From Minisyncoccia bacterium (GTDB lineage: Bacteria; Patescibacteriota; Minisyncoccia; Phycocordibacterales; DATDWN01): DNA of 36,732 nucleotides. A program made the translations under genes and the position numbers. Below the pieces are notes generated by a model, which saw only the letters and a list, made by a program, of their open reading frames with translations, had not been told where the DNA came from and did no database searches. The first letter of the stretch is position 1; every line of letters begins with the position of its first letter. The stretch covers positions 1 through 36,732 of the forward strand of contig JBAQWP010000083.1 of the NCBI GenBank assembly GCA_049298975.1, read 5' to 3'. This document shows positions 20,232 through 36,732 of the stretch, piece after piece.

Positions 20232-20235
20232 TGTG

Positions 20236-20895: not shown

Positions 20896-20916
20896 TCTTA
20901 GATGTTACCACAAGTT

Positions 20917-20939
20917 TCCCAGCGGTTAAACCGCTGGGA
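20917..20939. repeat. REP-like perfect hairpin, copy 3
   Basis: The identical 23-mer, in the same orientation as copies 1 and 2. Confidence 0.9.
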
Positions 20940-20955
20940 AGAGGCTCTAATTTTG

Positions 20956-21963: not shown

Positions 21964-21968
21964 AGGTG

Positions 21969-22949: not shown

Positions 22950-22999
22950 TTCTTTAATTTACCACAAATTAATCTTAATTTTAAGCATATTCTAGCTAC

Positions 23000-23028
23000 T
23001 TGCGTAATTTATATAGATATGTTATAAT
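23000..23028 (+). promoter_or_regulatory. Near-consensus sigma70 promoter of GC-rich cassette 1
   Basis: TTGCGT - 17 nt - TATAAT, preceded by TGt (extended -10). AGGAGG at 23055-60 lies 9 nt before the ATG at 23070. Confidence 0.6.
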
Positions 23029-23069
23029 TAGTGTAGAAAATTTGAAATGACTCTAGGAGGGGTCACGAC

Positions 23070-23846
23070 ATGGCTTATGTATTCTTTCTCGGTGGGCAAG
23101 ACCTCGAGATGTTGACCATTCGAAAACTCCTGGAGGAAAATAACCAGGAGTTCTTCGATAGACAGCTCAAGTGGGGCGCAAAAGCATCGGACTATCCTGT
23201 TCTTATGAATCCCGCATCGTTCGGCAACGGCGACTCCGGCAAGATGCCAGTTCTTGTTGAACTCGACATTGATGGTGGACCGTTACCGTATGGAGCCATT
23301 GTCGTCGATCACCATAACAACCGATCCGGTGAACTTGCCTCAATCTTACAAGTTTTCAAACTGCTCGGCATCGAGCCGACACGTGAACATCTACTAATCG
23401 CGGCGAATGACTCCGGTTACATTCCGGCCATGCTCCATGCAGGAGCTACGTCAGAAGAAATCGCGGACATCCGTCGACTCGATCGCGAAGCACAAGGCGT
23501 CACGGTGGAGATGGAAATAGAAGCCGAAGACGCCATCTATTGCAGAACCGAAGACAAGGGAGTTGTCATCGTGCAACTTCCGCACAACAAGGTCTCGGCA
23601 GTCACTGACCGAATGTTCACGAGTTGGCCAGACGGCAGAGAGAACCTCGTTGTAGTCTGCAAGATGGGCAACTTCGACTACGAAGTCTATTACTTTGGTC
23701 GCGGAGATATCTGTCGCGAAACCAAGGAGATGTTCAATGGCTTCGGTGGGGGCACTGGTTTCGGCGATCCAGCAAAGAACGCATTCGCTGGGTGCAAGAC
23801 CAAGACTCCAGTAGACGTCATCAACTTCGTCGTCGGGCGTCAGTAG
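23070..23846 (+). CDS. Hypothetical protein, GC-rich cassette 1 (weak DHH-phosphoesterase-like motifs)
   Basis: 258-aa ORF with a strong SD and terminator. VVDHHN, LVELDIDG and GFGGGTGFG loosely recall DHH-family motifs III, II and IV. The functional call is tentative. Confidence 0.6.
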   Translation: MAYVFFLGGQDLEMLTIRKLLEENNQEFFDRQLKWGAKASDYPVLMNPASFGNGDSGKMPVLVELDIDGGPLPYGAIVVDHHNNRSGELASILQVFKLLGIEPTREHLLIAANDSGYIPAMLHAGATSEEIADIRRLDREAQGVTVEMEIEAEDAIYCRTEDKGVVIVQLPHNKVSAVTDRMFTSWPDGRENLVVVCKMGNFDYEVYYFGRGDICRETKEMFNGFGGGTGFGDPAKNAFAGCKTKTPVDVINFVVGRQ

Positions 23847-23872
23847 CACAACTACTCACGCTCAACATACAG

Positions 23873-23908
23873 CACCCGCTGGGCTTCGGCTCAGCGGGTG
23901 TGTTTTAT
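23873..23908 (+). terminator. Intrinsic terminator of cassette 1
   Basis: CACCCGCTG-GGCTTCGGCT-CAGCGGGTG followed by TGTTTTATTT. Confidence 0.8.
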
Positions 23909-24007
23909 TTATTTCTAAATAATTCTTCAGAAAGCACCCCCCTAAATGTGTAATTATTTGTAAAATTTCAAGAAAAATTTAGATGTGATATAATTTTTTA
24001 AAATAAC

Positions 24008-25702
24008 ATGTCATTATTTACTGAATTTGGTTTGCTAATAGGAGTGGCCTTCGCTATTTCTTTAGTAATGAAACTTCTGAAGCAACCACTTATTATTGGT
24101 CACATAATAACCGGTCTGATTGTAGGTCCAATCATCGCGTCCTCTATCTCCACAGAAACTTTTACTCTTTTTTCCGAAATAGGAATAGCCATACTTCTTT
24201 TCACAGTCGGACTTAACCTTAGTCCAAAAACAATAAAAGAATTCGGTTCTATAGCTTTAATAACCGGAATAGGCCAAGTGGCCATAACAACCATTGCGGG
24301 CTATTTTGTGGCTATAGCTTTAGGATTTAGCACTATCTCTTCTCTTTATATTGCGGTCGCCCTAGCCTTCAGTAGTACTATTATTATTCTGAAACTTATT
24401 TCTGACAGGGGCGACATGGAAACTCTGTATGCAAAAATCTCAATTGGATTTTTGTTGGTACAAGATTTTATTGCGGTAATACTTCTTTTTATTATTCCTC
24501 TTGTTTCTTCTGGGAATTCTTCATTTGAAGAAATTGCTTTTGTTATAACCAAAGGTGTGTTTATGGTTGGTCTTATTATCTCTGTTGGTTTCTACCTTCT
24601 TCCAAAATTTAATGATTTTTTAGCAAAAGATATGGAGATGCTTTTCCTTTTCGCCACTGTTTGGGGTATCGGAATAGCAGCAATATTTAAACTTACAAAC
24701 TTTTCTATCGAAACTGGTGCGCTTGTAGCCGGAGTTGCTCTCTCAACACTTCCGAGTAGACATGAAATAAATGCCCGCATGATACCACTACGAGATTTTT
24801 TCATTGTAGTCTTTTTCATAATACTTGGATCTCACATGAATTTTTCAAATATTATAGAACTCCTGCCACAAGCACTTATTTTCTCTGCTTTGGTTCTTAT
24901 AGGCAATCCTCTTATTCTCATGATTATTATGGGAATACTTGGCTACAAAAAAAGAACAAGCCTTCAGACCGGTTTTACTGTTGCCCAGATAAGTGAATTC
25001 TCTCTTATTGTTATGGCTATGGGAGTAACTTACGGACATGTTACAGAAAAAACTCTTTCTCTGGTGACTCTTGTTGGTCTTATCACAATATTTGGCTCAA
25101 CATATTTAATACTATATTCAGATAAAATATATAAAATCCTGGCACCAGCGCTTTCAATATTTGAAAGAAAAAATGCTAGAGAAAAGGAAATAGAGACACA
25201 AAAATTCCCTATTATTTTGTTTGGAGCAAATAGAATAGGTTATGACTTCATACAGGAATTCAAAAAAACGGGTAAGCCATTTCTCATCATCGACCACAAC
25301 CCAGAGATTGTAAAAAATTTAACTGGCCAAGGCCTTAGCGTTGACTACGGCGATGCAATGACTTTGGACTATCTCGAATCAATAGACTATTCGAGTGCTG
25401 AACTCGTTGTCTCCACAATCCCCGACTCCGAAACAAACCTACTTATAAACAGAACAGTCAGAGCTATAAATCCAAACGCGCTTATTATGGTGGTATCCCA
25501 TAAAATACAAGAAGCAATGTCTCACTATGAAAACGGAATAAACTACGTGATACTTCCGCATTTTCTTGGTGGAAAATACGCAGCTGAGCTCAGCATAACC
25601 ATGCACGAAGACAAGGAAAGTGTAGGGAGAATAAAGGACCAGCATATAGAGCTACTCAAATCTAGAATAGGCAGTGGCCATGAACATCCAAAAATTGGCT
25701 AG
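24008..25702 (+). CDS. Cation:proton antiporter (CPA2/Kef-type) with C-terminal RCK/TrkA-N domain
   Basis: 564 aa with about 12 TM helices. A Rossmann-like ILFGANRIGYDFIQEFKKTGKPFLIIDHNPE follows. AT-rich with no SD. An extended -10 TGTGATATAAT lies upstream. Confidence 0.85.
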   Translation: MSLFTEFGLLIGVAFAISLVMKLLKQPLIIGHIITGLIVGPIIASSISTETFTLFSEIGIAILLFTVGLNLSPKTIKEFGSIALITGIGQVAITTIAGYFVAIALGFSTISSLYIAVALAFSSTIIILKLISDRGDMETLYAKISIGFLLVQDFIAVILLFIIPLVSSGNSSFEEIAFVITKGVFMVGLIISVGFYLLPKFNDFLAKDMEMLFLFATVWGIGIAAIFKLTNFSIETGALVAGVALSTLPSRHEINARMIPLRDFFIVVFFIILGSHMNFSNIIELLPQALIFSALVLIGNPLILMIIMGILGYKKRTSLQTGFTVAQISEFSLIVMAMGVTYGHVTEKTLSLVTLVGLITIFGSTYLILYSDKIYKILAPALSIFERKNAREKEIETQKFPIILFGANRIGYDFIQEFKKTGKPFLIIDHNPEIVKNLTGQGLSVDYGDAMTLDYLESIDYSSAELVVSTIPDSETNLLINRTVRAINPNALIMVVSHKIQEAMSHYENGINYVILPHFLGGKYAAELSITMHEDKESVGRIKDQHIELLKSRIGSGHEHPKIG

Positions 25703-25744
25703 TGACATAGTTGTGAATATACAGCATAATCATTTCTCTAAGTG

Positions 25745-25769
25745 TGCTATAATTAAGACAGAAAGGAGG
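25745..25769 (+). promoter_or_regulatory. Extended -10 promoter element and SD of cassette 2
   Basis: TGcTATAAT (25745-53). AGGAGG (25764-69) lies 8 nt before the ATG at 25778. No good -35. Confidence 0.45.
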
Positions 25770-25777
25770 GCGGACAT

Positions 25778-26449
25778 ATGTCTCGCTACTTGTTCGTTCT
25801 AGCACTACTTGCTCTGCCCTCTTGGGCACAAGCACAGGAAAAGCCACCGATTGAGCTTTTCGGCTCAAAACAAGTTGAGACTTGGCTAAACAAACGTGCA
25901 GATGAGCTTGGTATGGCGCGAATCGAAGATGATGTAGAACTCTTCTATCTCGCCGATCCTCGGATCAACTATCTCGTGCCAATACCAGATTCTATTTGCG
26001 TCGATCCAAGACTCGAAAACAAGTGGCGCTATGTTATGCCACAAGTTGCCAAGTTCCTTGTAGAGCTTCAAGAAAAATTCTCTGAGGAATTCGGTGAAGC
26101 GTGCTTTATGGTTAACTCTGCTGTCCGAACTATCCCACGACAAATGGAGATAACGATTGGCAGTGGAACCAAGAAAAACGGCAACAATAAGCCGAACTTA
26201 AACGCCGCAGCAGTTTGGGGAGAAAGAAGATCTCTACACCTCACTGGAGCAACAATCGACATTGGGAAACTGGATCCAATGTGGCTAAAGAAGGACAAAC
26301 TTGTTCAGCTAAAGCCAGAAATTATCAAATGGTTCCGAGAAAAATTGCTTAACTATGAGGATGGTGTCAATTTCGATGTCACTGAAGAGTTCGGGCAAGC
26401 GGTGTTCCACGTTACAGTACTCCCGCCACAATCTGTGGCAGTAAACTAA
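25778..26449 (+). CDS. Secreted LAS-superfamily (peptidase M15-like) zinc peptidase candidate, GC-rich cassette 2
   Basis: 223 aa. Sec signal peptide MSRYLFVLALLALPSWAQA/QE. NSAVRT (SxxR-like), HLTGATID (H-x6-D) and a distal FHV His fit the LAS metallopeptidase pattern. Confidence 0.6.
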   Translation: MSRYLFVLALLALPSWAQAQEKPPIELFGSKQVETWLNKRADELGMARIEDDVELFYLADPRINYLVPIPDSICVDPRLENKWRYVMPQVAKFLVELQEKFSEEFGEACFMVNSAVRTIPRQMEITIGSGTKKNGNNKPNLNAAAVWGERRSLHLTGATIDIGKLDPMWLKKDKLVQLKPEIIKWFREKLLNYEDGVNFDVTEEFGQAVFHVTVLPPQSVAVN

Positions 26450-26450
26450 A

Positions 26451-26498
26451 GGGCCGTCCGTTGCACATAAAGTCATGTGCGCCGTGCGGCCTTTTCTC
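26451..26498 (+). terminator. Compound intrinsic terminator of cassette 2
   Basis: GGCCG...GCACAT-AAAGTC-ATGTGC...CGGCC followed by TTTTCTC. Confidence 0.7.
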
Positions 26499-26532
26499 GA
26501 CCTTTTCTATTCGTAACAGACTCATACTAACA

Positions 26533-26567
26533 CCCTAAATGCACAGGGGTCCTCTGTGTATTTAGGG
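26533..26567. repeat. 14-bp stem hairpin without U-tract
   Basis: CCCTAAATGCACAG-GGGTCCT-CTGTGTATTTAGGG (one G-T pair). Not followed by a T-run on either strand. Confidence 0.6.
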
Positions 26568-26585
26568 CAAAAAAGACCTGAAACA

Positions 26586-26810
26586 CTACATGAGTTTCCT
26601 TATATCTGCTTCATACCTCTTCACCACCTCCATAGTCGCAGACATCTGATCCTTACCACTTTTCATAACTTCCTGTACTTCAGTTGCAATTTTTTGGAAA
26701 AAGGCTGGATCTTTTTCTATCATTGCAAAAATCTTATCCTGATCCGCTTGCGGAACACCCTTAAGCTGACTAGCCATCATTTTTCTCATTAAGAAATTTT
26801 TTATAGACAT
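26586..26810 (-). CDS. Small hypothetical protein
   Basis: The track ORF is 86 aa. The ATG at 26810 (MSIKNFLMRK...) avoids overlap with the divergent gene at 26829. No family recognised. Confidence 0.45.
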   Translation of the reverse strand: MSIKNFLMRKMMASQLKGVPQADQDKIFAMIEKDPAFFQKIATEVQEVMKSGKDQMSATMEVVKRYEADIRKLM

Positions 26811-26828
26811 GTGATATAATCTAAACGA

Positions 26829-27650
26829 ATGAAAAGAAAAAAGCAAAGAGTAAATCCCGGTCTTGCTTGGAAAACTGTTGGGTCTATGTTTTCTGTGCTT
26901 GCCGCTGGAATTGTAGTTTTCGTTTTCTATTATGGTTTCGATTTTATAGACATGTTTACACTCTCCTTCTACGAGAACCTAGCAAATCCATCTATTAGAA
27001 TAGTCAGAGTAGTTGAGGGCATGCGTAAAGAAGAAATAGCGGAAATAATGGCCAATAAGCTGGGTTGGAATAGTTTCCAGAAAGATCAGTTCATCAATGC
27101 TCATTTAGCTCTCAACTCCGAGAACCTGGAAGGTCATTATTTTCCTAAAACCTATATGATTCTCCACGGTGAAAATCCATTTGAGGTCTCCACTAATATG
27201 TTTTATGAGTTCTCCAAGGAAACACAGAAAGTAAAAACTAAAACAAAAATAATAAATCCAGATACTGCATTAAAAATTGCCTCGATTATCCAAAGAGAAT
27301 CTGGAGGCAAGAGTGATATGAAGTTAATTTCTGGAATAATTTGGAACCGACTTTTTGCGGGCATGAAACTTCAGATCGACGCTACCCTTCAATACGCTAA
27401 AGGTAATGAAGAGGATGGTTGGTGGCAAACTGTAAACCCGGAGGATAAAAAAATAGATTCCCTATATAACACATATATTTATAAGGAGCTTCCACCATCC
27501 GCAATAGCCAACCCTGGCTTAGCAGCCATAGAAGCCGCATATAACCCAGTAAAAACTAGTTGTATGTATTTTCTTCACGATAGACGAGGTAGGATACACT
27601 GCTCTAAAACATACGACGAGCACAGACGAAACATTGATAAGTATTATTAA
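26829..27650 (+). CDS. MltG/YceG-like endolytic transglycosylase, second paralog
   Basis: 273 aa. N-terminal TM helix, ASIIQRESG, and YNTYIYKELPPSAIANPG signature. Confidence 0.8.
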   Translation: MKRKKQRVNPGLAWKTVGSMFSVLAAGIVVFVFYYGFDFIDMFTLSFYENLANPSIRIVRVVEGMRKEEIAEIMANKLGWNSFQKDQFINAHLALNSENLEGHYFPKTYMILHGENPFEVSTNMFYEFSKETQKVKTKTKIINPDTALKIASIIQRESGGKSDMKLISGIIWNRLFAGMKLQIDATLQYAKGNEEDGWWQTVNPEDKKIDSLYNTYIYKELPPSAIANPGLAAIEAAYNPVKTSCMYFLHDRRGRIHCSKTYDEHRRNIDKYY

Positions 27651-27654
27651 GTAA

Positions 27655-27686
27655 AGAAAAAGCCCGCTGTAAGCGGGTTTTTTCTT
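27655..27686. terminator. Bidirectional intrinsic terminator
   Basis: AAAAAGCCCGC-TGTAA-GCGGGTTTTTT between convergent genes. Confidence 0.8.
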
Positions 27687-27701
27687 TAAGTTTTGACAAG
27701 A

Positions 27702-28424
27702 TTATTTTAGAGTTGTTTCAATACTTGCCTTTGCTCTCAAGGATTGTACGAAAGCTGTCGCCTCTACTTGTTGCTTCTGAAGAGTTAGCTGTTGCTTTAT
27801 CTGAGCCTCAACGTCCTTAAGTGCTGGTATTGGTTGTGGCTTCTGATCCTTAGGAAGTTTCTTATCTGCTTCCTTCTGAGCAGCAACTGCATCATCATAA
27901 AACTTTTTAACCTCAGCGTCTGTAACTGCTACTTTAGCTGGATCAATGTTTGCTAAAAGATACTTCTGACCTGTTATTTGTCTACTGAGGTTTTCCTTAA
28001 ACTTTGCCTCAGTAATGTTTATTTTCTTTAGCTCCTCTGCTAGCTTATCTGCTCCCCCAAGCTGAGTAACTACTGCTTGAAACTGAGTGTTTATTTCATC
28101 AGCTGTAGCTGTAATACCAGCAGCTTTCACACCCTGATTAACCAATTCATTGTTTATAAGATCAGTTAAAACTTGAGTTCTAATAGCAGTTACTACAGTC
28201 GTAGATGCTGTATCTACACCCTGATTCTTCAATGCTGTAATAGAAGACGCTAACTGACTCTCATAATCTGTCTTTGTAATATCTACCCCATTTACCTTCG
28301 CTACTGATTCAACAGTTGCAACTGCAGGAGTTGTTGTAGCATTCTTCTTTCCTAAAACCATATATCCTCCAACCGCAACAACAACGAGAGCGAGGACACT
28401 TCCGACAACTTTTTTCATATCCAT
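27702..28424 (-). CDS. SurA N-terminal-domain-like periplasmic/extracytoplasmic chaperone
   Basis: 240 aa with a membrane anchor (VVGSVLALVVVAVGGYMVL). VAKVNGVDITKTDYESQL... resembles SurA_N-type domains. No PPIase domain is visible. Confidence 0.55.
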   Translation of the reverse strand: MDMKKVVGSVLALVVVAVGGYMVLGKKNATTTPAVATVESVAKVNGVDITKTDYESQLASSITALKNQGVDTASTTVVTAIRTQVLTDLINNELVNQGVKAAGITATADEINTQFQAVVTQLGGADKLAEELKKINITEAKFKENLSRQITGQKYLLANIDPAKVAVTDAEVKKFYDDAVAAQKEADKKLPKDQKPQPIPALKDVEAQIKQQLTLQKQQVEATAFVQSLRAKASIETTLK

Positions 28425-28539
28425 CTTTTTTGTAAAAAATTAACTCTATTAAATCTTTTAATGTGAAAGAATTGTATCACACAGCCTAGAAAACCCACAA
28501 GTTCCCGATAAAGTTAAACCACTATTTTGATAAAGTATC

Positions 28540-28579
28540 AAAAAACCGGTCGAATCATAAAGACTCAAGACCGGTTTTC
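28540..28579 (-). terminator. Intrinsic terminator after 28588..28776
   Basis: AAAACCGGTC...GACCGGTTTT. On the minus strand it is followed by TTTTTTG. Confidence 0.65.
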
Positions 28580-28587
28580 CGCGCTCA

Positions 28588-28776
28588 CTATTGTGAGACT
28601 GTTGGGATGTTGGGTATGAAGCCTGCAGTCATTTGGTACTTGGCTCCATGTATAACATCTTGTGCGGTATCAAAGAACACTAGGAGGGTGTTCTTTGCCG
28701 CGAAGTAAACCTCGGGCGCTAGGAACTTAAGTGCTATTATCAACACTACAATTCCCAATGCTTCAAAAATTCTCAT
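28588..28776 (-). CDS. Small membrane protein, hypothetical
   Basis: 62 aa with one hydrophobic helix (ALGIVVLIIALKFLA). It has its own terminator and a weak RBS. Confidence 0.45.
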   Translation of the reverse strand: MRIFEALGIVVLIIALKFLAPEVYFAAKNTLLVFFDTAQDVIHGAKYQMTAGFIPNIPTVSQ

Positions 28777-29000
28777 ATTTTTTTGCCTTGAGAGTTGCCT
28801 TTTTCATGTCGCCGACTAGCGACACTATGTGCGATAAATGCACTGCCCCCCTCTTCACTTTCCGCTATTGAGGTCGCAAATTGCGACGTCCAAAAGTGGC
28901 GAGTGAAGAAATGAGGTTCCGTGCTTTACTTGTTTCAATACTTGTTTCAATGAGCTACACCAGTATTTTAACACAACTCTGTATTTCCTGACAAGTGGTA

Positions 29001-29029
29001 TTGACAGTGTGAAAATATTGTGTAAATAT
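29001..29029 (+). promoter_or_regulatory. Sigma70-type promoter of GC-rich cassette 3
   Basis: TTGACA - 17 nt - AAATAT preceded by TGt (or a 16-nt spacer to TAAATA). Confidence 0.5.
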
Positions 29030-29043
29030 CACTTAAGGAAGTC

Positions 29044-29064
29044 GTGTCTGCATACAGCAGACAC
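29044..29064 (+). promoter_or_regulatory. Perfect 8-bp hairpin in the 5' leader of cassette 3
   Basis: GTGTCTGC-ATACA-GCAGACAC sits between the promoter and the SD AAGGAG (29072-77). Confidence 0.5.
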
Positions 29065-29082
29065 TCGAGACAAGGAGACGTC

Positions 29083-29670
29083 ATGCCACGAGTGAAAGCC
29101 TCGACGAAAAAAGAGATCTCGAGTCTTAAAAGAGATCTTACAAGACTACGAAAAGTAGTTAAAGGACTCGAAGAAGTGGTCGAGATGTGTGATACCGCCC
29201 ACGTCACCGCGATGGCGGAGGTAATTCATCTTCGCAATGTTCAGGAGGATACATCGGGCCATCTCTATGCGGTGTGTACTGAAGCCAGGCAGGTCCCACA
29301 CCTCAAGGCACGTGTCAACGAGCTGCGTAAAAGCAACCAGTCATTTGCTGATGATGAACTGCGCAACAGTACATTCATCCTCTCGCAACACGAAGAGATT
29401 AGCAGATTGAGTAAGCAACTGAAAAAGGCGGAGGAGGAATTTGAGATTACTAAGAATGCCGGTGGTATGATTGCGGCGTGCCTCCTTTGTCAAGGTGAGG
29501 GGCCACTATCAATGCCGGATGTCCTCAGTGTTCTTACGAACCTGGAATCCCTGATTCCTGGCCTACGACTGAACGACGAGGTGCTAACCGCAGTTTCTGT
29601 TATGCTCGGTAAAGGCTCACCAGTCGCAGCAACGCTCAGATTGAAGATGGAGCTGGAGAATCGCAAGTAA
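29083..29670 (+). CDS. Hypothetical coiled-coil-rich protein, GC-rich cassette 3
   Basis: The track start 29044 is a GTG inside the leader hairpin. The ATG at 29083 lies 5 nt after AAGGAG and gives 195 aa (MPRVKASTKKEISSLKRDL...). No family recognised. Confidence 0.6.
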   Translation: MPRVKASTKKEISSLKRDLTRLRKVVKGLEEVVEMCDTAHVTAMAEVIHLRNVQEDTSGHLYAVCTEARQVPHLKARVNELRKSNQSFADDELRNSTFILSQHEEISRLSKQLKKAEEEFEITKNAGGMIAACLLCQGEGPLSMPDVLSVLTNLESLIPGLRLNDEVLTAVSVMLGKGSPVAATLRLKMELENRK

Positions 29671-29750
29671 GGTAGTCGCAGTCATTGACCCTATGACGGC
29701 AAAGGTACGGGCCTAGATCCAAGCGAGAACTACGTCGACACGGATAGATG

Positions 29751-29790
29751 GGTGGGATGCACTATGTATATAGTGGTCCCGCCTTTTTTT
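29751..29790 (+). terminator. Intrinsic terminator of cassette 3
   Basis: GGTGGGATGCACTAT-GTAT-ATAGTGGTCCCGCC followed by TTTTTTT. Confidence 0.7.
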
Positions 29791-29817
29791 AGTACAAAAA
29801 ATTTTCAAACCTATCTA

Positions 29818-31056
29818 TCATAAAAATAACAAATCTCTATCTAAATCCTCACTGTCCGTCCCCTTCACTTGTCTTGTTTTTGCTTTATGGGTTGAGGCGA
29901 GATAGACAACTTTTTTACCAAACTTTTCTTCGAGGTTATCTATACTTTCGTGAATTTTCTCAAATCTTCTAGCCGTGTCCCCTTCTCCAAATAAATCCAA
30001 CTGCCTCAGAGGCTGTGGTGTCAGATCACACAAAGTCACCCCGGTGGTTCTGTACACTTTCATTCTGAAATAAACCTTTCTAAAATATTTATAAACTAGG
30101 GTGATTAGTACTTCTGGCGCATTGGTTGGAGTTTCTATAGGAAGTTCAAACGAATGATAATGAAAATCTTGAGTTTTAAGAAAAAAATTTATCCTCTTAG
30201 TAACTAGTCCATAATGACGAGCCTTCCGGCAAGCTTCTTCTATATTTTTCGAAAATTGAGACATTAAAAAACTTTCATCACTAGTCGGTGGATGAAAAGT
30301 TCTAGTTTTTTGGATGGAATCAAAAGAAGTTTTAGTCTCACTATCTACTTGCATGACATTAACTCCTTGAAGCTCGTGCCAGATAGCCAGAAACGGTTCC
30401 GATAAATTTTCTTTTATCCAATCTTCCTTTAAGTTCACAAAATCTAGTGCAGTTTTTATACCTTTAAACTCTAGCTCTCTGGAAGTTCTCGGACCAATAC
30501 CCCAAATTTTTCCAACAGGATTTTTTTCTAGAAAATTTATAGCTGTTTCTTTGGTTATCACAGTAAGCCCATTTGGTTTTTGCCATTTGGAAGCAACTTT
30601 GGCCAGACATTTTGTAGGAGCCAGACCAACAGAAACAGAAAGTCGAAGCTCTTCAGTAACTTCTTTTTTTATTCTCTCTGCAATCTGCTTGTATGCCATA
30701 TATAGTGGTTTGTCGAGACCTGTCAGATCTGCAAAACACTCATCAATACTGTATTCCTCTACTTCATCTGCATATCTTCTCACAATATCAAACATCTTCT
30801 GTGAATAATCTGCATAGGACTTGTAATCCCCTGGCAAAACCAAAACACCAGGAAAATCTTTTTTCAGTTTAAAAATGGGATAACCACGGGTCACACCAAG
30901 CGCCTTTGCTTCATACGATGCAGCAGAAACTATACCGCGCTCTTCGCCGGTAACCACAGGCAGTCCCCGAAGTTTCTCATTTTTTGCAACTTCACAAGCC
31001 ACAAAGAATGAATCCCCATCCATGTGAAAAATTACCTTTTCTCTCTTTTCTCTCAT
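29818..31056 (-). CDS. dinB: DNA polymerase IV (Y-family)
   Basis: IFHMDGDSFFVACE, SIDECFADLTG and a HhH region (KIWGIGPRTSRELEFKGIKT). The track start 31092 is a TTG that coincides with the -35 box. The ATG at 31056 (MREKREKVIFHMDGD...) is preferred. Confidence 0.9.
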   Translation of the reverse strand: MREKREKVIFHMDGDSFFVACEVAKNEKLRGLPVVTGEERGIVSAASYEAKALGVTRGYPIFKLKKDFPGVLVLPGDYKSYADYSQKMFDIVRRYADEVEEYSIDECFADLTGLDKPLYMAYKQIAERIKKEVTEELRLSVSVGLAPTKCLAKVASKWQKPNGLTVITKETAINFLEKNPVGKIWGIGPRTSRELEFKGIKTALDFVNLKEDWIKENLSEPFLAIWHELQGVNVMQVDSETKTSFDSIQKTRTFHPPTSDESFLMSQFSKNIEEACRKARHYGLVTKRINFFLKTQDFHYHSFELPIETPTNAPEVLITLVYKYFRKVYFRMKVYRTTGVTLCDLTPQPLRQLDLFGEGDTARRFEKIHESIDNLEEKFGKKVVYLASTHKAKTRQVKGTDSEDLDRDLLFL

Positions 31057-31062
31057 GGGTAT

Positions 31063-31092
31063 ATTATAAGTGAACGTTAGTTCACCTGGCAA
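31063..31092 (-). promoter_or_regulatory. dinB promoter, probably giving a leaderless mRNA
   Basis: Minus strand reads TTGCCA - 18 nt - TATAAT - ATACCC - ATG. Only 6 nt separate the -10 from the start codon, and there is no SD. Confidence 0.55.
31072..31083. promoter_or_regulatory. Cheo-type LexA (SOS) box candidate
   Basis: GAAC-GTTA-GTTC (GAAC-N4-GTTC palindrome) lies in the spacer between -35 and -10 of dinB. Confidence 0.5.
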
Positions 31093-31110
31093 GGTATCCG
31101 TTGTCTCCTC

Positions 31111-31339
31111 TCACCTATTACATTTTTCATCAACAGAATATTTTGCTGTTGCAAAATTTCTTTCTACTCACCTCTTCACGGGTTCCGTAGATGATGAAAA
31201 ATATAATAGGTTCGATGAAACAGTAAACATCTCTCGTTGAACCTATATTTTTTATGGGGCTCTGCGGAGTCTGTGAAAGACGAGCAGGAAGAAAATTTTT
31301 GGCAGAAAATTATTCTGGTCCCAGAAAAAATATAGGTGA
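31111..31339. repeat. MITE-like element with ~55-nt imperfect terminal inverted repeats (repeat copies B and C)
   Basis: The left arm at 31111..31170 starts TCACCTATTA.... The right arm at 31284..31339 ends ...TATAGGTGA. The arms are roughly 70% complementary. The centre holds the hairpin ATAGGTTC...GAACCTAT (31206..31246). Confidence 0.45.
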
Positions 31340-31365
31340 AAAAGAGTTTATATTTTTTAACCCCT

Positions 31366-32295
31366 TTATCTCAAAATTTTATTTATATCAAAATCCTTTA
31401 TTTCCTCCCCTACAATGTAGCAAACTCTCTGTAGTGGTCTGTACCTTGAAACAAAATCTTTCTCCTTATACTCGCCATTAGGATACTGCACCCCATACTT
31501 AACAGTCGCGGTATAACCTATCTGAGGGTTGTTTATACATTTAACTTGATCCTCCTCAAGTTTCTCAACATAAATGTATTTTGTCGGCAAAATGTCAACT
31601 AGTTTAGTAATCTCTGCCTCGGTAGTACTAGCAACTCTTCCATCTTTGACTCCGAATATTTCAAAAACCGCACTGGAGTCTTCTACTTTTCCTTTTATTA
31701 CTATGGGATTTTTTGTGTCATTTAAAAATTTAAAATCAGGACCTGGATCCGAATATGTTGCATCCAAACCAACATCATAGTAAGAAACAGTAAAGCTATG
31801 ATTTGTTCTTTGTGTGACTGGTAAACCAGAATCTAAGACACTTCTAAACAAAGTCGTAGAAACTTGGCAAATTCCACCACCTATCTCCTTTTTTACTTCG
31901 CCGTTGAGAAAAACTCTCTCTCGACTATAACCCATTTCTGGTGTGGTGGTACCTAATACATCTTTAAAAGAAAATTCCTTACCAGACTCCACGATTGTAT
32001 TGTTTATTTTTGCCAAACCAATTTCTATATTTTTTTTCCTACCTTCAGTTCCTCCAACAAAACTAACCTTTGCCCTACCAAGAAGATCTAGTTTAGACAC
32101 ATCTAAGTCATTTGTCTTTGTTGTGGTAGCTTTTGCAGATCCCGTTAGTTCTGAAATACCATCTTGAATCTTATTCGAAGTATTTTTTTTACTAATTAGA
32201 AAAAAATATATAGCAACTACAGCAAGCAAAAGAGCAACAAAAAGAAAAACTGGTTCCACTTTAGGACTTCTTACTTTTTTCTTCTTGCGTGACAT
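31366..32295 (-). CDS. VanW family protein
   Basis: 309 aa. N-terminal TM helix and GGGICQVSTTLFRSVLDSGLPVTQRTNHSF, the VanW signature. Confidence 0.85.
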   Translation of the reverse strand: MSRKKKKVRSPKVEPVFLFVALLLAVVAIYFFLISKKNTSNKIQDGISELTGSAKATTTKTNDLDVSKLDLLGRAKVSFVGGTEGRKKNIEIGLAKINNTIVESGKEFSFKDVLGTTTPEMGYSRERVFLNGEVKKEIGGGICQVSTTLFRSVLDSGLPVTQRTNHSFTVSYYDVGLDATYSDPGPDFKFLNDTKNPIVIKGKVEDSSAVFEIFGVKDGRVASTTEAEITKLVDILPTKYIYVEKLEEDQVKCINNPQIGYTATVKYGVQYPNGEYKEKDFVSRYRPLQRVCYIVGEEIKDFDINKILR

Positions 32296-32338
32296 GGAAA
32301 TAATTATATCAGTAATTAAAAACTTTCATATAAAGAAG

Positions 32339-32370
32339 GAGCCGTGGTGCTTATGTCGCACACACGGCTC
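32339..32370 (-). terminator. Terminator hairpin of GC-rich cassette 4
   Basis: GAGCCGTG...CACGGCTC (8-bp stem). On the minus strand it is followed by CTTCTTTAT. A second hairpin GATGAAC-TCA-GTTCATC (32381-97) spans the stop codon. Confidence 0.5.
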
Positions 32371-32386
32371 GAGCCATCAGATGAAC

Positions 32387-32626
32387 TCAGTTCATCCTTC
32401 TACACTCACCCCCGTCACACGTTCCCACATATGCACAGGATGAGCAATCGAGACAACGCAGAAGTGCACCGTCACCACCTCCGCGAATGTCTCGCGCCAA
32501 CCCGGCACGGTCGCGCGGTGGGAGGTGGACAAGGTTCGTTGGGGCGAGTGAGTCAACCCTAACGGACGTAGTCGATGTCCTGAGGTAAGCCTGGATTTCA
32601 TACGTGGTGAAGTTGCTTCGATGCAT
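32387..32626 (-). CDS. Small Cys-rich protein (79 aa), GC-rich cassette 4; the coding strand is uncertain
   Basis: AGGAGG lies 6 nt before the ATG at 32626 (MHRSNFTTYEIQ...), and a promoter and terminator are on this strand. The C-terminus is CLDCSSCAYVGTCDGGEC. ORFs are open in three frames here, so the coding status is unsure. Confidence 0.4.
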   Translation of the reverse strand: MHRSNFTTYEIQAYLRTSTTSVRVDSLAPTNLVHLPPRDRAGLARDIRGGGDGALLRCLDCSSCAYVGTCDGGECRRMN

Positions 32627-32642
32627 AGAATCCTCCTCATAA

Positions 32643-32671
32643 ACCATACCTCTATACTAAATTCCTGTCAA
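32643..32671 (-). promoter_or_regulatory. Sigma70-type promoter of cassette 4
   Basis: Minus strand reads TTGACA - 17 nt - TATGGT. It overlaps the stop codon of the DUF1003 gene. Confidence 0.55.
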
Positions 32672-33126
32672 CTCTTTTTCTTTAAGTTTTCCACCTCCTC
32701 CAAAACCCTCTTTAGAGTTGCTTCGATGCTTGAAAGTTTGGCCTCGTCTATCCTCTCTTGGCTTTCGTCCTCTACCTCTTTTTCTATCTCATCCACGTCT
32801 TCCTGAATCTCCTCAACATCCTCTTGGATTTCATCCACATCATGCTGAATCTCATCAATATCCTCGGATATTTCCTCAACCTCCTCAGCTATGTCTTCTA
32901 TATCTTCTTCAACTTCCTCCAGACTCTCTGTGTTTCGGTTTACTGTCATCTGTATGAAAATAGCCAGATAAATAGCTTCAAGAGAAACAATAGTAGTAAG
33001 CACGAGCAGAACTGTGTCTAGTTTAAATCCAAAAAAAGGTAGAGAAAAAATTACAGCAAAGAATATTGTGTGCATCACAACCGAAGTTCTAGACCCTATC
33101 CATTTTGTAAAATTTTTCTCCCACAT
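32668..33126 (-). CDS. DUF1003-like membrane protein with acidic repeat tail
   Basis: 152 aa. Two TM helices and SLEAIYLAIFIQMTVNRN (the SLEA...QNR-type motif of DUF1003). An E/D-rich heptad-like repeat follows. Confidence 0.7.
   Translation of the reverse strand: MWEKNFTKWIGSRTSVVMHTIFFAVIFSLPFFGFKLDTVLLVLTTIVSLEAIYLAIFIQMTVNRNTESLEEVEEDIEDIAEEVEEISEDIDEIQHDVDEIQEDVEEIQEDVDEIEKEVEDESQERIDEAKLSSIEATLKRVLEEVENLKKKS
32764..32928 (-). repeat. Degenerate in-frame tandem repeats encoding an acidic (E/D)(I/V)(D/E)EIQ tract
   Basis: EEVEEDIEDIAEEVEEISEDIDEIQHDVDEIQEDVEEIQEDVDEIEKEVEDE. Confidence 0.7.
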
Positions 33127-33350
33127 ACTATTACTTATAATACACTATCCCAAACATAACAATATGTTTACTCAGATTTGTTATTAATAAAAAAATATAT
33201 TTATCTTATAAGAACAAGTGACAGTAGTGTGACAGTAGCTTCTATCCCAGGAAAAGTCACGGTTGTTTAATCAAAGAGAATTTTCACAGAAAAACCCACC
33301 ATAGATGCAGGCAGGTTATCTGTCGTATCGTAGCGGATTTATTCCCTCCC

Positions 33351-33647
33351 TCAATATAGATCAAATGTAACTAATGCACCCGATCTGGAGATGTATCTCC
33401 AAGGCCCCCTATGGTACATCTTGGCTTCACACATCTCGCGATCGTTTGGCAAAACCTCTATCCAGTCGTAGCAAACATAACTACAACCGCGAATGGTGAG
33501 TCGACGAGCTAGTTCTTCGGTTGAAGCAGACTTAGTCGTCAACTTACGGAGCAAGACATCTTTTTCTTGCTTGGTCATCCGGGACCACTTCTTCCCGGGT
33601 CGTACAAACGAAACAAACGAAATCATAAACCGAAATAACATTGTCAT
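33351..33647 (-). CDS. Hypothetical protein, GC-elevated cassette 5
   Basis: 98-aa ORF. GAGG lies 5 nt before the ATG and TTGACA is upstream at about 33695-33700. No family recognised. Confidence 0.45.
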   Translation of the reverse strand: MTMLFRFMISFVSFVRPGKKWSRMTKQEKDVLLRKLTTKSASTEELARRLTIRGCSYVCYDWIEVLPNDREMCEAKMYHRGPWRYISRSGALVTFDLY

Positions 33648-33710
33648 TTTTGCCTCGATTCTCTATCTCTCTCTTGTAGGTATGCGCTTAATATACTGTA
33701 ATGTCAATAG

Positions 33711-35291
33711 CTACTTTACCTCAAACATAAACATCATACCGCTCTCTAGGTGCTCGGCGATGTGACAGTGTGCCATCCACATTCCAGGGTTTTCCATATC
33801 GACAAGTATTTCAACGGTGTCGCCCTTCTGGATAAGTGTAGTATCCTTCCAAACCAAGTTTGTATTCTTTACACCATTGGTTGAAAGAACAAGAAACTTC
33901 TGTCCGTGAATATGAAACGGATGTTGCATAGGATGTATCGACTTTGGATCGTTGAAAATTTTAATCTTTACCTTATCCCCCTTTTTAAATTTCCAATCTA
34001 TTTTTTCGTTTGCTTTCTTTGTGTCGTTGTCGACGATCTTCCATTTCACGCTCTTCGAAGTCGACATACTGTTCATCATTTGCATGTTATCTTCCCACTC
34101 TATTTTTTCCTTGTCATTTCCTCCCATCATCATTCCGCTATTACTCATCATAGTGCCGTCTGGCATCATATGCATACCACCTGACATGCCCATTCCAGAC
34201 ATATCGATAGTAAGCGTCAGACTCTTATCCACTGGTTTGTCAAAATATTGTCGTAGTGGGTCGATACTTGCGATAGTATCTTTGTTTGTTCGAAGTGTTT
34301 GGAACTCTGTTTTGTATGACTTGTCGACATTTTCACTTGATACTTCAAAAGTAGTTATGTTATTTATTTCTTCTTTTGAGTTATGCACTAGTTTATACAT
34401 ACCTGCCCTTTCAAAAAATGCATCAATTACATATCTCTCCGAAGGTGAGATTATTATCTCATCAACAAATGTTTCCCTTTCATACTTACCATTATCCCCT
34501 CCAACAAGTTTCAACTTTACTCCTGGAATAGAAAGCCTGAAAACTCTGGTATTTGCAGTGTTTGTAATATAGAAACGAACGACTTCACCCTGTCTTATTG
34601 AAACCTTATTATCCACTACACCATTTACAAGAAAAATATTTCCGTAGCGACCCATGAGCGTATAGTTTGCTACTGCACCAAACGGCACTATGGTTAATTG
34701 CCCACTTGGGCTTTGATCCATCAAAATATCATCTACCATAAGTGGTATTTCCTTGTTTACTGGCAACCAGTAATTCGGGTCCTTGGAGGTTACAATATAG
34801 TTTCCATATAGACCAAGTTCTTGGGCGTAGTCCTCCCGAAAATGTGGATGGTACCAATACACCCCCTCATCAGGAAATTTTATTTTGTAACTAAATGATC
34901 CGCCAATGCCTACCACTTTTTGGGTTACGTCAGGAACTCCGTCATATTTATTATCTAGACGAACACCGTGTGAATGAATAGTCGTAGGAATGTCAGTATT
35001 GTTAGTAAAATTTATTGTAATCTCTGAATCCTTTGTAACTCTTAAAACCGGTCCAGGCACGGAGCCATTATATGCAAGCATTTTTATTTCTTGTCCGGCT
35101 ACAACTTTTTTTACAATGCTCGCAACAATATCATATGTTTCGCCATCTTTTAGATCTATTACTTGTGATTCGCTTGCAACTGAGGCATTTTTGACTGGTG
35201 TGTTGGACAACTTGGTCGAACTACTGTTCCATTGCCAAAAAACTCCTCCCAATAGAACCAGTCCAATTATAATTATGTAACTTTTTTTCAT
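33711..35291 (-). CDS. Multicopper oxidase (CopA/CueO-like) with Met-rich insert
   Basis: 526 aa with a signal/anchor helix. The copper ligand motifs are HSHG, WYHPH, HPFHIHG and HCHIAEHLESGMM. The Met-rich segment is MSGMGMSGGMHMMPDGTMMSNSGMMMGG. Confidence 0.9.
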   Translation of the reverse strand: MKKSYIIIIGLVLLGGVFWQWNSSSTKLSNTPVKNASVASESQVIDLKDGETYDIVASIVKKVVAGQEIKMLAYNGSVPGPVLRVTKDSEITINFTNNTDIPTTIHSHGVRLDNKYDGVPDVTQKVVGIGGSFSYKIKFPDEGVYWYHPHFREDYAQELGLYGNYIVTSKDPNYWLPVNKEIPLMVDDILMDQSPSGQLTIVPFGAVANYTLMGRYGNIFLVNGVVDNKVSIRQGEVVRFYITNTANTRVFRLSIPGVKLKLVGGDNGKYERETFVDEIIISPSERYVIDAFFERAGMYKLVHNSKEEINNITTFEVSSENVDKSYKTEFQTLRTNKDTIASIDPLRQYFDKPVDKSLTLTIDMSGMGMSGGMHMMPDGTMMSNSGMMMGGNDKEKIEWEDNMQMMNSMSTSKSVKWKIVDNDTKKANEKIDWKFKKGDKVKIKIFNDPKSIHPMQHPFHIHGQKFLVLSTNGVKNTNLVWKDTTLIQKGDTVEILVDMENPGMWMAHCHIAEHLESGMMFMFEVK

Positions 35292-35394
35292 TTCGTTATT
35301 CTAGCATTGATTACTAATAATTCAGAAATTATGAAATACTATGAAAGTAGCTCGAAACCATTACTTTCCAAAGCAAGAGAAGTCAGTTAATTTC

Positions 35395-35423
35395 TTGTAA
35401 GTTTTAAGATATTGTTGTATAAG
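35395..35423 (+). promoter_or_regulatory. Sigma70-type promoter of cassette 6
   Basis: TTGTAA - 17 nt - TATAAG. AGGAGG (35429-34) lies 5 nt before the ATG at 35440. Confidence 0.55.
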
Positions 35424-35439
35424 AAAACAGGAGGTTGAG

Positions 35440-35694
35440 ATGAAAGCAGAGTTAGAAGTTCGTGAAGGAATTCTTCTTCGATCAAAACACACACCCGCAA
35501 CAGCCATCGTTGACCATAACCACGATGGAAGTATCACTGTGAGAATGGGAAACAGAAGAATCGGACTTCGGATAAACGAAACTGGTGGAGTCGAAATCCT
35601 GACACCAGATGAAAGGATCATTGTGGACGAGATCAAGTGTCTCGAGGGGCAAGACCCGGCCTACGGAAAATTCGTTCTGGTGCAGAAAGTCTGA
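35440..35694 (+). CDS. Hypothetical small protein, GC-rich cassette 6
   Basis: 84-aa ORF with a strong SD, a promoter and a terminator. No family recognised. Confidence 0.55.
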   Translation: MKAELEVREGILLRSKHTPATAIVDHNHDGSITVRMGNRRIGLRINETGGVEILTPDERIIVDEIKCLEGQDPAYGKFVLVQKV

Positions 35695-35716
35695 CCATCA
35701 TGTCCGCCTACCAACT

Positions 35717-35750
35717 ACCTGGTTAGCTCCACAGCTAATCAGGTTTTTTA
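35717..35750 (+). terminator. Intrinsic terminator of cassette 6
   Basis: ACCTGGTTAGCT-CCAC-AGCTAATCAGGT followed by TTTTTTA. It overlaps the stop codon of the convergent Nudix gene. Confidence 0.7.
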
Positions 35751-36337
35751 TTCCACTTTTCCTTTAGTTCAATTGCTTTTTGCATTATTCTGTCACCCGC
35801 CTCTCCCCAATCAAAATATTGTTTATAATCATTTGGATCAATCAACATTATTTCCATAATTTCACCATCCGGGTCTGAAACAAATTCTCCAATTTTTTCA
35901 ACAATACACATAACTCTTGTTTGCTTTATTATTTTATCTGGTCTTTCAAAAATACTGTAACCAATAAGTTCTTGATATAGGACTTTCATATTAGTTTCTT
36001 CTTTTACTTCTCTTTCAGTGGTTTCAGTATATAACTCCCCAGGTTCAGCACTCCCGCCAGGCGGCATCCAACCATCCTTGGGATGATGAACCAAAACTAA
36101 TTGATCTTCTAAAAAACAGAATGCGTGTGAACCATCAAAATCTCTTTCATCAGAAATACCTACCAGGTCAGCTTCATCATAATATGTCTGAAATATTTTG
36201 GAACCTTCCTTACTTTGAAATGTTGCTTTGATTTTCATTTGAATTATAGACCTAGAGGGAATCGGCGTCAGCTCACTAATTTCGTCTAGCTCAATAAGTG
36301 GCTTCTGCCCGGACTCGGCGACAAGCACTCGTTTCAC
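35735..36337 (-). CDS. NUDIX hydrolase
   Basis: Nudix box GGSAEPGELYTETTEREVKEETNM. The track start is a GTG in GC-rich sequence. The ATG at 36238 (MKIKATFQ...) is an alternative start. Confidence 0.8.
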   Translation of the reverse strand: MKRVLVAESGQKPLIELDEISELTPIPSRSIIQMKIKATFQSKEGSKIFQTYYDEADLVGISDERDFDGSHAFCFLEDQLVLVHHPKDGWMPPGGSAEPGELYTETTEREVKEETNMKVLYQELIGYSIFERPDKIIKQTRVMCIVEKIGEFVSDPDGEIMEIMLIDPNDYKQYFDWGEAGDRIMQKAIELKEKWNKKPD

Positions 36338-36595
36338 TCGTCTTGTATACCGCCTCCGTCTTTCGATTCCTCCTAGATCTTACAAAAATATAGTCACAAA
36401 ATAATTCTCATTTTGTTCTTTATTTTTGTGGACTCATTGTATAAAACTTCGAACCGCCTGAAAACCTACCTTTCTCGTTTCTGGGATTACTATCAGACTA
36501 GCCCCGCCCTTCAAGAAAGCCTTGGAGGAATGGCTGCTATCTGACCTCCGGGGATACACCATAGGGATATCAGATAACCATGAATAAACACGAAC

Positions 36596-36732
36596 ATGAG
36601 AAAGCCAAAAGAAATTGAGGAACTGATCAAACGAGCGATCCGAGATGAAATCGATTTGTATCCTCTCAAGTCAGTGGCCCAGGTTCGTAATACTCTCTAT
36701 CGGCATGGCTACCAATCTCTCCGAGGCGAACT
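36596..36732 (+). CDS. Partial ORF running off the window (GC-elevated region 7)
   Basis: Hand translation gives MRKPKEIEELIKRAIRDEIDLYPLKSVAQVRNTLYRHGYQSLRGE..., with no stop before the window end. No SD seen. Confidence 0.3.
   Translation, partial: MRKPKEIEELIKRAIRDEIDLYPLKSVAQVRNTLYRHGYQSLRGE

Follow-up and report, generated by a model that had tools for sequence, protein, structure and literature searches.

Atypical base composition is a standard marker of recent horizontal gene transfer (HGT), and genes that carry it are expected to drift towards the composition of their host. A phage moron is a single gene that sits between unrelated genes and is autonomous, being equipped with a promoter and a terminator of its own, and the cassettes of integrons and of clusters of attC sites lacking integron integrases (CALIN arrays) are single open reading frame (ORF) units, which are contiguous, co-oriented and mostly promoterless. 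In Patescibacteria, abundant exchange of individual genes and islets, mostly within the group, has been described together with a competence machinery (PMC12455944); there, too, atypical single genes lie between the backbone genes of reduced and presumably competent genomes, with no dedicated vehicle. Here we analysed contig JBAQWP010000083.1 of a Minisyncoccia bacterium, a complete NCBI contig of 36,732 bp that is referred to as the window throughout, in which seven GC-rich islands alternate with AT-rich genes.

These islands are real features of the genome. Their composition and their translation signals alike are of a foreign type, and the islands form part of a clade-wide two-signature gene class with persistent GC-richness. 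They are a variant of a kind that is already known, namely accessory genes of atypical composition acquired by HGT. In contrast to the transferred islets of Patescibacteria, however, they are GC-richer than their host, the opposite of the usual AT-rich accessory genes, their initiation signal is unlike that of the backbone, and at least two of them stay atypical through saturating divergence. We favour, as an even call, an explanation in which genes were acquired one by one at widely differing times, no dedicated machinery took part, and a force specific to these genes has since held their GC content high.

Two kinds of transcription unit in one contig

The left 23 kb of the window is a compositionally even run of minus-strand genes with a GC content of 0.32-0.42, among them genes for ribosomal proteins, rpoA, alaS, mnmA, leuS and ychF. 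Loci anchored on the Na+/H+ exchanger gene were found in metagenome-assembled genomes (MAGs) labelled Paceibacterota, Zambryskiibacteriota, Parcubacteria or Saccharibacteria, and have the backbone order mltG, sigma factor, leuS, DUF5671, cupin and ychF in common. Given this order, shared with labelled Patescibacteria MAGs, and the even, AT-rich left half, the source organism is an AT-rich, Paceibacteria-type Patescibacterium with a reduced genome. The right half of the contig is an accessory region prone to rearrangement, which holds two kinds of transcription unit. The backbone kind would be AT-rich, with a GC content at third codon positions (GC3) of about 0.3, without a Shine-Dalgarno (SD) sequence and often with an extended -10 box close to the ATG, and the island kind would be monocistronic, GC-rich, leadered and SD-led, with a GC-rich hairpin at its end.

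Each island was compared in GC content with left-half windows of equal length (Table 1); 300-nt windows of the left half have a mean of 0.366, a standard deviation of 0.031 and a maximum of 0.45. The island ORFs reach GC3 values of 0.44-0.58, compared with 0.307 ± 0.045 (maximum 0.39) in 33 native genes, and the corresponding z-scores are 3.0 to 6.1 for islands 1-6. Islands 1-6 are clear compositional outliers and island 7 is weak, so that an earlier note on this DNA, whose seven hand counts of GC were all reproduced exactly, was right about the former and went too far with the latter. Amino-acid composition was rejected as the cause of the window islands because GC3 itself is raised. Translational selection was rejected as well, since ribosomal-protein genes have GC3 values of 0.20-0.32 and lack the islands' preference for C-ending codons, and so was strand or replication skew, as two plus-strand native genes are AT-rich and the islands occur on both strands (+ + + - - + + from island 1 to island 7).

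Atypical composition alone would also be compatible with an assembly chimera, contamination, an integron cassette array or a prophage remnant, all of which we regard as next to negligible. The junctions of islands 1, 2 and 4-7 (for island 2, the left side only) are reproduced in L001, L002 and L044, Logan assemblies from the two sequencing runs SRR28011556 and SRR28012402; L044 is 100% identical to the window over 5561 bp (31172-36732, islands 4-7) and extends 815 bp beyond it. MAGs from other studies show a like mosaic. The earlier note had argued for real integration from overlaps with native gene ends, and both overlaps hold: the -35 box of island 4 (32666-32671) covers the stop codon of a DUF948/DUF1003-like gene, and the hairpin of island 6 contains the Nudix stop codon. 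The islands share with integron cassettes the single-ORF layout and, at the slot of island 3, differing cargo behind a conserved promoter. In contrast to integrons, they are interleaved with core genes in mixed orientation and have promoter-like boxes of their own; no shared repeat, attC-like or other, was found among the islands, their hairpin sequences differ, and Pfam searches of the scanned ORFs returned the Y1 enzyme of an IS200-type element as the only transposase and no IntI. That no integrase, transposase or shared repeat accompanies the islands, as claimed before, stands for the stretch in which they lie, and the Y1 element is found outside it. The likeness to phage morons lies in autonomous single-gene units between unrelated genes, but the islands have no prophage context and their flanks are cellular backbone genes. 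PHROGs gave one insignificant match, PHROGs and NCBIfam together nothing useful for the island proteins, and no viral matches were obtained in IMG/VR scans (islands 1 and 3) or by tblastn against a phage database (islands 1 and 2). Nothing tested points to the dedicated cassette-capture mechanism that had been proposed.

The second part of the signature concerns translation initiation. Duplexes with the anti-SD sequence are predicted at -9 to -16.8 kcal/mol in islands 1-6, whereas the roughly 28 native starts all stay at -5 or weaker; the SD sites are thus stronger than stated before, and island 7 has none. In nine native first-in-operon genes (Table 1), an extended -10 box (TGnTATAAT-like) ends 6-13 nt before the ATG. 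This spacing, together with the absence of native SD sequences, suggests that the native backbone mRNAs are largely leaderless or near-leaderless. The -10 boxes of islands 1 and 2 lie 41 and 24 nt upstream, respectively, with the SD within the leader. The anti-SD motif has been reported in only 48% of Parcubacteria 16S rRNAs (PMC9297842), and its loss in part of this group agrees with a backbone devoid of SDs and lends interest to the conservation of the island SDs. Among the AT-rich relatives, excluding the window, a strong SD precedes 49% of 41 GC-rich ORFs vs 16% of 314 others (Fisher p = 5e-6), as counted on crude ORF calls, some of which are on the wrong strand.

GC-rich ORFs among AT-rich genes are also found in L015, L021, L022 (eight), L025, L039 and other related loci. 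Apart from the DHH and DUF5715 genes discussed below, these ORFs are mutually unrelated and patchy in their presence. In L003, the nearest relative in the GTDB taxonomy, a gene of collagen triple-helix repeats (11773-12564) occupies the slot right after the Na+/H+ exchanger gene. It has 61% GC and a strong SD, and its GC-richness is at least partly due to Gly-Pro codons; another GC peak of L003 consists of tRNA genes.

Individual promoter boxes and hairpins could be placed for most of the islands, as described before. Nevertheless, matches to such consensus signals are not enriched across the region relative to shuffled sequence (31 sigma-70-like matches vs 40 ± 7; 11 terminator-like matches vs 12 ± 3.5), and the terminator of island 6 is shared with the Nudix gene. 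It is thus the SDs, together with the strong hairpins of islands 1, 5 and 6, and not the number of matches, that support the picture of self-contained cassettes.

Two islands with relatives in other genomes

The island-1 protein matches the PADLOC profiles C3a116 (5e-62) and DHH_CorA (1e-46) and the NrN structure 9lq9 (E = 1.3e-24, aligned residues 3-184), with 9lqa and 9lqc also matched at about 1e-24. As its DHH motif is intact (VVDHHNN aligned to IDHHNE of NrN), the product is predicted to be an NrN-family DHH phosphodiesterase. The island-2 protein is a predicted secreted zinc peptidase of the DUF5715/LAS type: it exceeds the Pfam cutoff for DUF5715 (45.2 bits, cutoff 26.8) and carries a signal peptide, and the residues H154, D161 and H211, corresponding to H-x6-D...H zinc ligands, are invariant in 16 sequences. 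Its AlphaFold2 model (predicted local distance difference test, pLDDT, 84) gave LdcB/VanY, MepA and the Hedgehog N-terminal domain as the best Foldseek matches, with a probability of about 1.0, template modelling (TM) scores of 0.4-0.58 and E of about 1e-3. Compared with the described LAS peptidases VanY/LdcB and MepA, then, the ligands, the signal peptide and a predicted LAS-like fold agree, but the structural match is moderate, VanY itself stays under its Pfam cutoff (16.9, cutoff 25), and a sequence search of the PDB with island 2 returned no match. The earlier view that none of the products is recognisable does not apply to these two islands once profile searches are used.

NrN is a DHH phosphodiesterase that degrades S-adenosylmethionine-AMP (SAM-AMP) in type III-B CRISPR-CorA systems (PMC10600005). 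Unlike NrN, island 1 is not accompanied by such a system, as no cas10, other cas gene, CorA gene or CRISPR array was found in the window. Its constant neighbour is instead a PolyA_pol-family gene, which it divergently adjoins in all six contexts (L015/16, L017/18, L019/20, L039, L040 and the window). According to PDB searches, this short neighbour (about 325-340 aa) belongs to the class-II nucleotidyltransferases of the CCA-adding/poly(A)-polymerase family, and its pairwise identities correlate with those of the DHH protein across the six genomes (r = 0.79). The two enzymes may act together, perhaps in turning over RNA 3' ends or nucleotide signals, and this association between an NrN-like phosphodiesterase and an enzyme of the CCA-adding type offers a starting point for studying how RNA ends or nucleotide signals are metabolised in these organisms. 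The named closest homologs of island 1 are from Patescibacteria. An antisense gene overlapping the DHH gene was considered and rejected, since the antisense ORF lacks conservation, its length ranging from 101 to 253 codons.

Among the five AT-rich hosts, GC and GC3 of the DHH gene amount to 0.52-0.55 and 0.58-0.64, respectively, and its partner follows the host (GC 0.31-0.44); L040 is a Patescibacterium of 54% GC in which high GC is native to both genes. Four-fold degenerate sites are saturated in both genes for most genome pairs, and the GC content of these sites (GC4) in the DHH gene remains at 0.55-0.67. Between the window and L015, 0.55 of the synonymous sites of the DHH gene are identical vs 0.29 expected. 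The SD is conserved in five of the six DHH orthologs.

The surroundings of island 1 were resolved by comparison with L041, L042 and L043, where ychF directly adjoins the DUF5715 promoter (ychF identity to the window 93% for L041 and 88% for L042/43). What is left of the ancestral ychF start in the window is 8 nt, AGTGACAT at 25701-25708, still joined to the island-2 promoter; this remnant is the reverse complement of ATGTCACT, the first 8 nt of the ancestral ychF, and overlaps the stop codon of the Na+/H+ exchanger gene. The N-terminus of YchF has been rebuilt in the window (MASNLS vs MSLS) with a new 6-codon 5' end (21946-21963), and the block junction is resolved to a few bases. This remnant and the rebuilt N-terminus indicate that island 1 entered together with two AT-rich genes as part of one three-gene block. 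Island 1 is accordingly absent from the orthologous site in L041 and L042, as part of the missing block.

Island 2 has a different history. All 15 DUF5715 homologs found are 50-82% identical, and five genomes, the window, L021, L022/23, L041 and L042/43, share one slot for the gene, with the ychF side on its one flank and a run of small-ORF, YceG and SurA genes on the other. The SD box, present in all five orthologs, and the terminator hairpin are orthologous among these genomes, the hairpin with compensating changes, and the DUF5715 identity matrix broadly tracks the backbone genes. As judged from this synteny and from the sequence comparisons, island 2 is an old resident, vertically inherited in one slot. 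Its GC3 is 0.23 in L021, 0.44 in the window, 0.46 in L042, 0.55 in L022 and 0.67 in L041, with 0.2-0.44 in the neighbouring genes. In L021, a relative thus carries the gene at native composition in conserved synteny, a finding that speaks against the earlier picture of this island as an insertion.

The four-fold sites of YceG and SurA are saturated among the DUF5715-bearing genomes. In our own calculation with a standard amelioration model, one synonymous substitution per site and lineage erases about 90% of an initial GC excess, so that, given the saturated neighbours, the present GC3 values of DUF5715 cannot stem from a single ancient import. In the L041 lineage, polarised four-fold changes in DUF5715 number 14 from AT to GC vs 1 from GC to AT, and 5 vs 11 in the adjacent ychF, as counted at 76 four-fold sites near saturation with L042 as the single outgroup; the sample is small, yet the two genes differ sharply.

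The earlier note had proposed seven independent and fairly recent moron-type insertions of single genes from higher-GC donors, possibly by an undescribed cassette-capture mechanism. The combination of atypical composition with donor-type SD signals would agree with this, as would the mixed orientations with no vehicle in the range of the islands and the variable slot of island 3. Besides, at 90% identity islands 3, 4 and 6 each form a cluster of their own, and island 5 is joined by only one other member, a 75-aa NCBI protein. This proposal is refuted for island 1, which belongs to a conserved pair and arrived in a block of mixed composition, and for island 2, which occupies the same slot among siblings. 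In addition, no shared repeats and no recombinase were found, and there is no trend of amelioration. Because GC-richness is kept, and in one lineage rises, at saturated synonymous divergence, amelioration after recent import fails as an account, and the GC excess is not residual donor composition. We consider recent independent insertion very unlikely for the set as a whole; how old the units are, and by what route they came, varies widely from island to island.

Possible origin and maintenance of the GC-richness

We surmise that the island units would have entered the lineage or its ancestors singly, by ordinary DNA uptake and recombination and with no dedicated integrase. Their GC-richness would then not be a donor residue; rather, a gene-specific force would hold it high against the AT pressure of the genome. 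Candidate forces are selection on SD-led mRNAs, or GC-biased repair during repeated recombination with homologous alleles.

Several points weigh against this combination of acquisition and upkeep. For islands 1 and 2, it is possible that no transfer ever took place and that they represent a special native gene class. None of the islands could be traced to a donor; the named nearest homologs of island 1 are themselves from Patescibacteria, and the GC-rich loci of this group are not obvious sources, with SDs at only 10-21% of their genes. GC-rich Patescibacteria do exist (51-56% GC), and one of them, L030, comes from the same Joint Genome Institute (JGI) dataset (Ga0209542) as L015, but as simple donors of SD-led units they were rejected for this reason. 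The clade-wide SD contrast and the polarised changes in DUF5715 carry the limits given with them above. A function of the SDs is presumed from their conservation, and the slots of islands 4-7 lie outside the reach of every sibling genome compared.

A tentative possibility, which we consider rather less likely than not, is that two gene classes exist side by side in some Paceibacteria, namely a leaderless, SD-less, AT-rich backbone and a set of leadered genes with SDs, in which some force actively keeps GC high, or raises it in place, against the AT mutational pressure of the genome. Selection linked to a second way of starting translation could exert this force, as could GC-biased conversion directed at these genes. 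The islands would then be a maintained compositional compartment rather than un-ameliorated imports, in a lineage from which the anti-SD motif is reportedly disappearing.

Transfer might be dispensed with altogether if the GC-rich, SD-led genes were a native Paceibacteria regulon, whose composition and leaders are under selection for mRNA stability or structure, or for a separate initiation mode. The constant GC content of the DHH gene in five hosts of differing GC and the SDs kept in the DHH and DUF5715 orthologs are in line with this. Folding compared with synonymously shuffled sequences also gave z-scores of -2.8, -2.0 and -4.3 for islands 1, 2 and 5, with most native genes near 0, but islands 3 and 6 have no excess mRNA structure by the same measure. 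Moreover, the GC-rich ORFs of relatives are mostly unrelated and patchy, and island 3 is essentially without homologs. The island-2 ortholog of L021 is fully AT-rich, yet intact and still SD-led, which implies that GC-richness is dispensable. We regard a regulon without any transfer as unlikely.

At synonymous sites, DHH and DUF5715 are less diverged than YceG, SurA and PolyA_pol, while ychF, which lies beside DUF5715 in L041 and L042, keeps a similar excess. This fits constraint, as a regulon would imply, and more recent exchange alike. Recurrent allelic replacement is the form that such exchange would take, with resident units being overwritten by homologous recombination with alleles of GC-richer relatives, so that their composition would be that of a shared gene pool. 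In addition to the GC-rich Patescibacteria mentioned above, the PolyA_pol-DHH pair at native high GC in L040 and the strong shift from AT to GC in the DUF5715 gene of L041 would agree with replacement. However, the distances of DHH and PolyA_pol are correlated, the DHH of L040 is no closer to the copy of any AT-rich host, and the DUF5715 identities broadly follow the backbone. As the flanks differ among genomes, only recombination within the gene would be left. We find replacement distinctly unlikely and retain acquisition gene by gene, with GC-richness kept up by a gene-specific force, as the favoured explanation.

If the pattern of this contig were genome-wide, composition-based HGT calls in Patescibacteria would mislead, selection or biased conversion acting on GC would be directly testable in a natural system, and the SD puzzle in lineages reported to be without the anti-SD would gain a concrete gene set.

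The remaining islands and other features of the window

The coordinates of all islands, their signals and the other features discussed are collected in Table 1.

Table 1. Features of the 36,732-bp window; z is the GC z-score of an island against left-half windows of the same length.
Feature	Position	Strand	Details
Island 1	23000-23908	+	GC 0.505, z 8.3; ORF 23070-23846, 258 aa; ORF GC 0.52, GC3 0.58
Island 1 promoter	23000-23005, 23023-23028	+	TTGCGT, 17-nt spacer, TATAAT
Island 1 SD	23055-23060	+	AGGAGG
Island 1 terminator hairpin	23872-23901	+	
Island 2	25701-26498	+	GC 0.463, z 5.1; ORF 25778-26449, 223 aa
Island 2 extended -10	25745-25753	+	TGcTATAAT
Island 2 SD	25764-25769	+	AGGAGG
Island 2 terminator hairpin	~26453-26495	+	
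Island 3	28976-29823	+	GC 0.489, z 6.7; ORF 29083-29670, 195 aa, ORFan; ORF GC 0.50, GC3 0.52
Island 3 promoter	28988-29016	+	CTGACA, 17-nt spacer, GAAAAT; common to L041
Island 3 SD	29072-29077	+	AAGGAG
Island 3 hairpin and T-run	~29751-29790	+	
Island 4	32330-32671	-	GC 0.541, z 6.0; ORF 32387-32626, 79 aa, ATG 32626
Island 4 promoter	32671-32643	-	TTGACA, 17-nt spacer, TATGGT
Island 4 SD	32632-32638	-	GAGGAGG, 5 nt before ATG
Island 4 hairpin	32339-32370	-	
Island 5	33286-33700	-	GC 0.443, z 3.0; ORF 33351-33647, 98 aa; weak SD; terminator hairpin 33294-33312
Island 6	35395-35754	+	GC 0.444, z 2.8; ORF 35440-35694, 84 aa
Island 6 promoter	35395-35400, 35418-35423	+	TTGTAA, 17-nt spacer, TATAAG
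Island 6 SD	35429-35434	+	AGGAGG; energy -12.4 kcal/mol
Island 6 hairpin	35717-35744		Contains Nudix stop codon; terminator common to convergent Nudix gene
Island 7 (weak)	36596-36732	+	GC 0.447, z 3.4; start of ORF running off contig
Window-specific block	21946-25700		3.76 kb; rebuilt ychF 5' end, nucleotidyltransferase, island 1, Na+/H+ exchanger gene
Class-II nucleotidyltransferase gene	21969-22949		GC 0.315, unusually AT-rich
Na+/H+ exchanger gene	24008-25702		GC 0.37
Mildly GC-rich native segment	28430-28975	-	62-aa small-protein gene 28588-28776, GC3 0.48, no SD
Y1 transposase element (IS200 type)	20199-20940	-	Gene 20236-20895; Pfam Y1_Tnp 3.2e-8
Native genes with near-start extended -10 box	Starts 6964, 9427, 10269, 15141, 24008, 26829, 32295, 33126, 35291		

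The slot of island 3 is variable among siblings. It holds island 3 in the window, an IS30-family transposase in L042, and another GC-rich, SD-led ORF of 56 aa in L041. Homology between the window and L042 covers the region of a 62-aa gene and resumes with dinB from 29824, and the three-way alignment with L041 extends it to about 28975. The -35 and -10 boxes (TGACAAGTG ... TGAAAAT) are common to the window and L041, whose sequences part right after the -10. On this single case, from which no mechanism is drawn, the variable unit would span roughly from transcription start to terminator. The 56-aa ORF of L041 (6700-6996) is acidic, unrelated to island 3 and followed by a GC-rich hairpin. For the island-3 protein, one distant homolog (31% identity, E = 9.5e-13) was found among 1.84 billion representative proteins.

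The adjoining, mildly GC-rich segment is native and not an insertion, with a nucleotide identity of 78% to L042 and 74% to L041 and with homologs of its 62-aa protein in L003 and L005. Upstream of the 62-aa gene, positions 28780-28975 are conserved at the nucleotide level in L041 and L042, and contain a hairpin (about 28850-28920) as well as 12 nt duplicated in tandem (tacttgtttcaa twice, about 28926-28949). This region could be an element of the 5' untranslated region.

Each island had been credited with exactly one ORF, which is doubtful for islands 4 and 5. Neither shows codon-position periodicity in GC (GC1/GC2/GC3 of 0.56/0.54/0.55 in island 4; flat, with a GC3 of 0.49, in island 5), and their coding status is in question for this reason; they may encode structured RNA. 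GC-rich structured RNAs are expected to stand out in an AT-rich genome. The folding z-scores of -3.7 for island 4 and, as given above, -4.3 for island 5 relative to synonymous shuffles are compatible with such RNAs. In addition, gene callers pick differing frames for island 4, namely an 82-aa ORF in L044 and an 86-aa ORF in another Logan entry, and the exact island-4 ORF sequences queried have no entry among NCBI proteins. On the other hand, neither Rfam, at the gathering threshold and at E <= 1, nor ARAGORN, with no tRNA or tmRNA, identified an RNA gene in any island, and island 4 has a perfect GAGGAGG 5 nt before its ATG. RNA genes in place of protein genes at islands 4 and 5 are therefore conceivable, though on balance doubtful.

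The ORF of island 6, with GC1/GC2/GC3 of 0.59/0.37/0.45, looks coding, and its single-sequence AlphaFold2 model is of low confidence (pLDDT 53). Islands 4, 5 and 6 have no family match in the libraries scanned (Pfam, PHROGs, NCBIfam and PADLOC); they would be lineage-restricted orphans. A dinB-anchored metagenome scan returned relatives of at most 66% identity, none of which shares synteny. The full ORF of island 7, taken from L044, comprises 179 aa with a GC3 of 0.39 and no SD, and has no Pfam or PDB match. Just past the right end of the window, L044 carries a strong GC-rich, SD-led ORF of 104 aa (142-456; GC 0.55, GC3 0.70), which is convergent with island 7 and has no Pfam match.

The Y1 transposase element is of native GC content and lies outside the range of the islands. 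A perfect palindrome of 23-24 nt, TCCCAGCGGTTAAACCGCTGGGA, occurs three times in it (20208, 20426 and 20917), at both ends and inside the transposase gene, with 0 copies expected by chance. These palindromes were considered as cassette ends and rejected, as there are only three copies and every one of them is at the transposase. In the siblings L022 and L043 the element is not present between cupin and ychF, and cupin adjoins ychF.

Two diverged MltG/YceG paralogs of about 35% identity (12789-13814 and 26829-27650) lie in one 15-kb stretch of the window, and both are kept in siblings. The DUF948/DUF1003-like gene contains 21-nt periodic repeats (32768-32914), which translate into an acidic repeat region of E/D-rich heptads.

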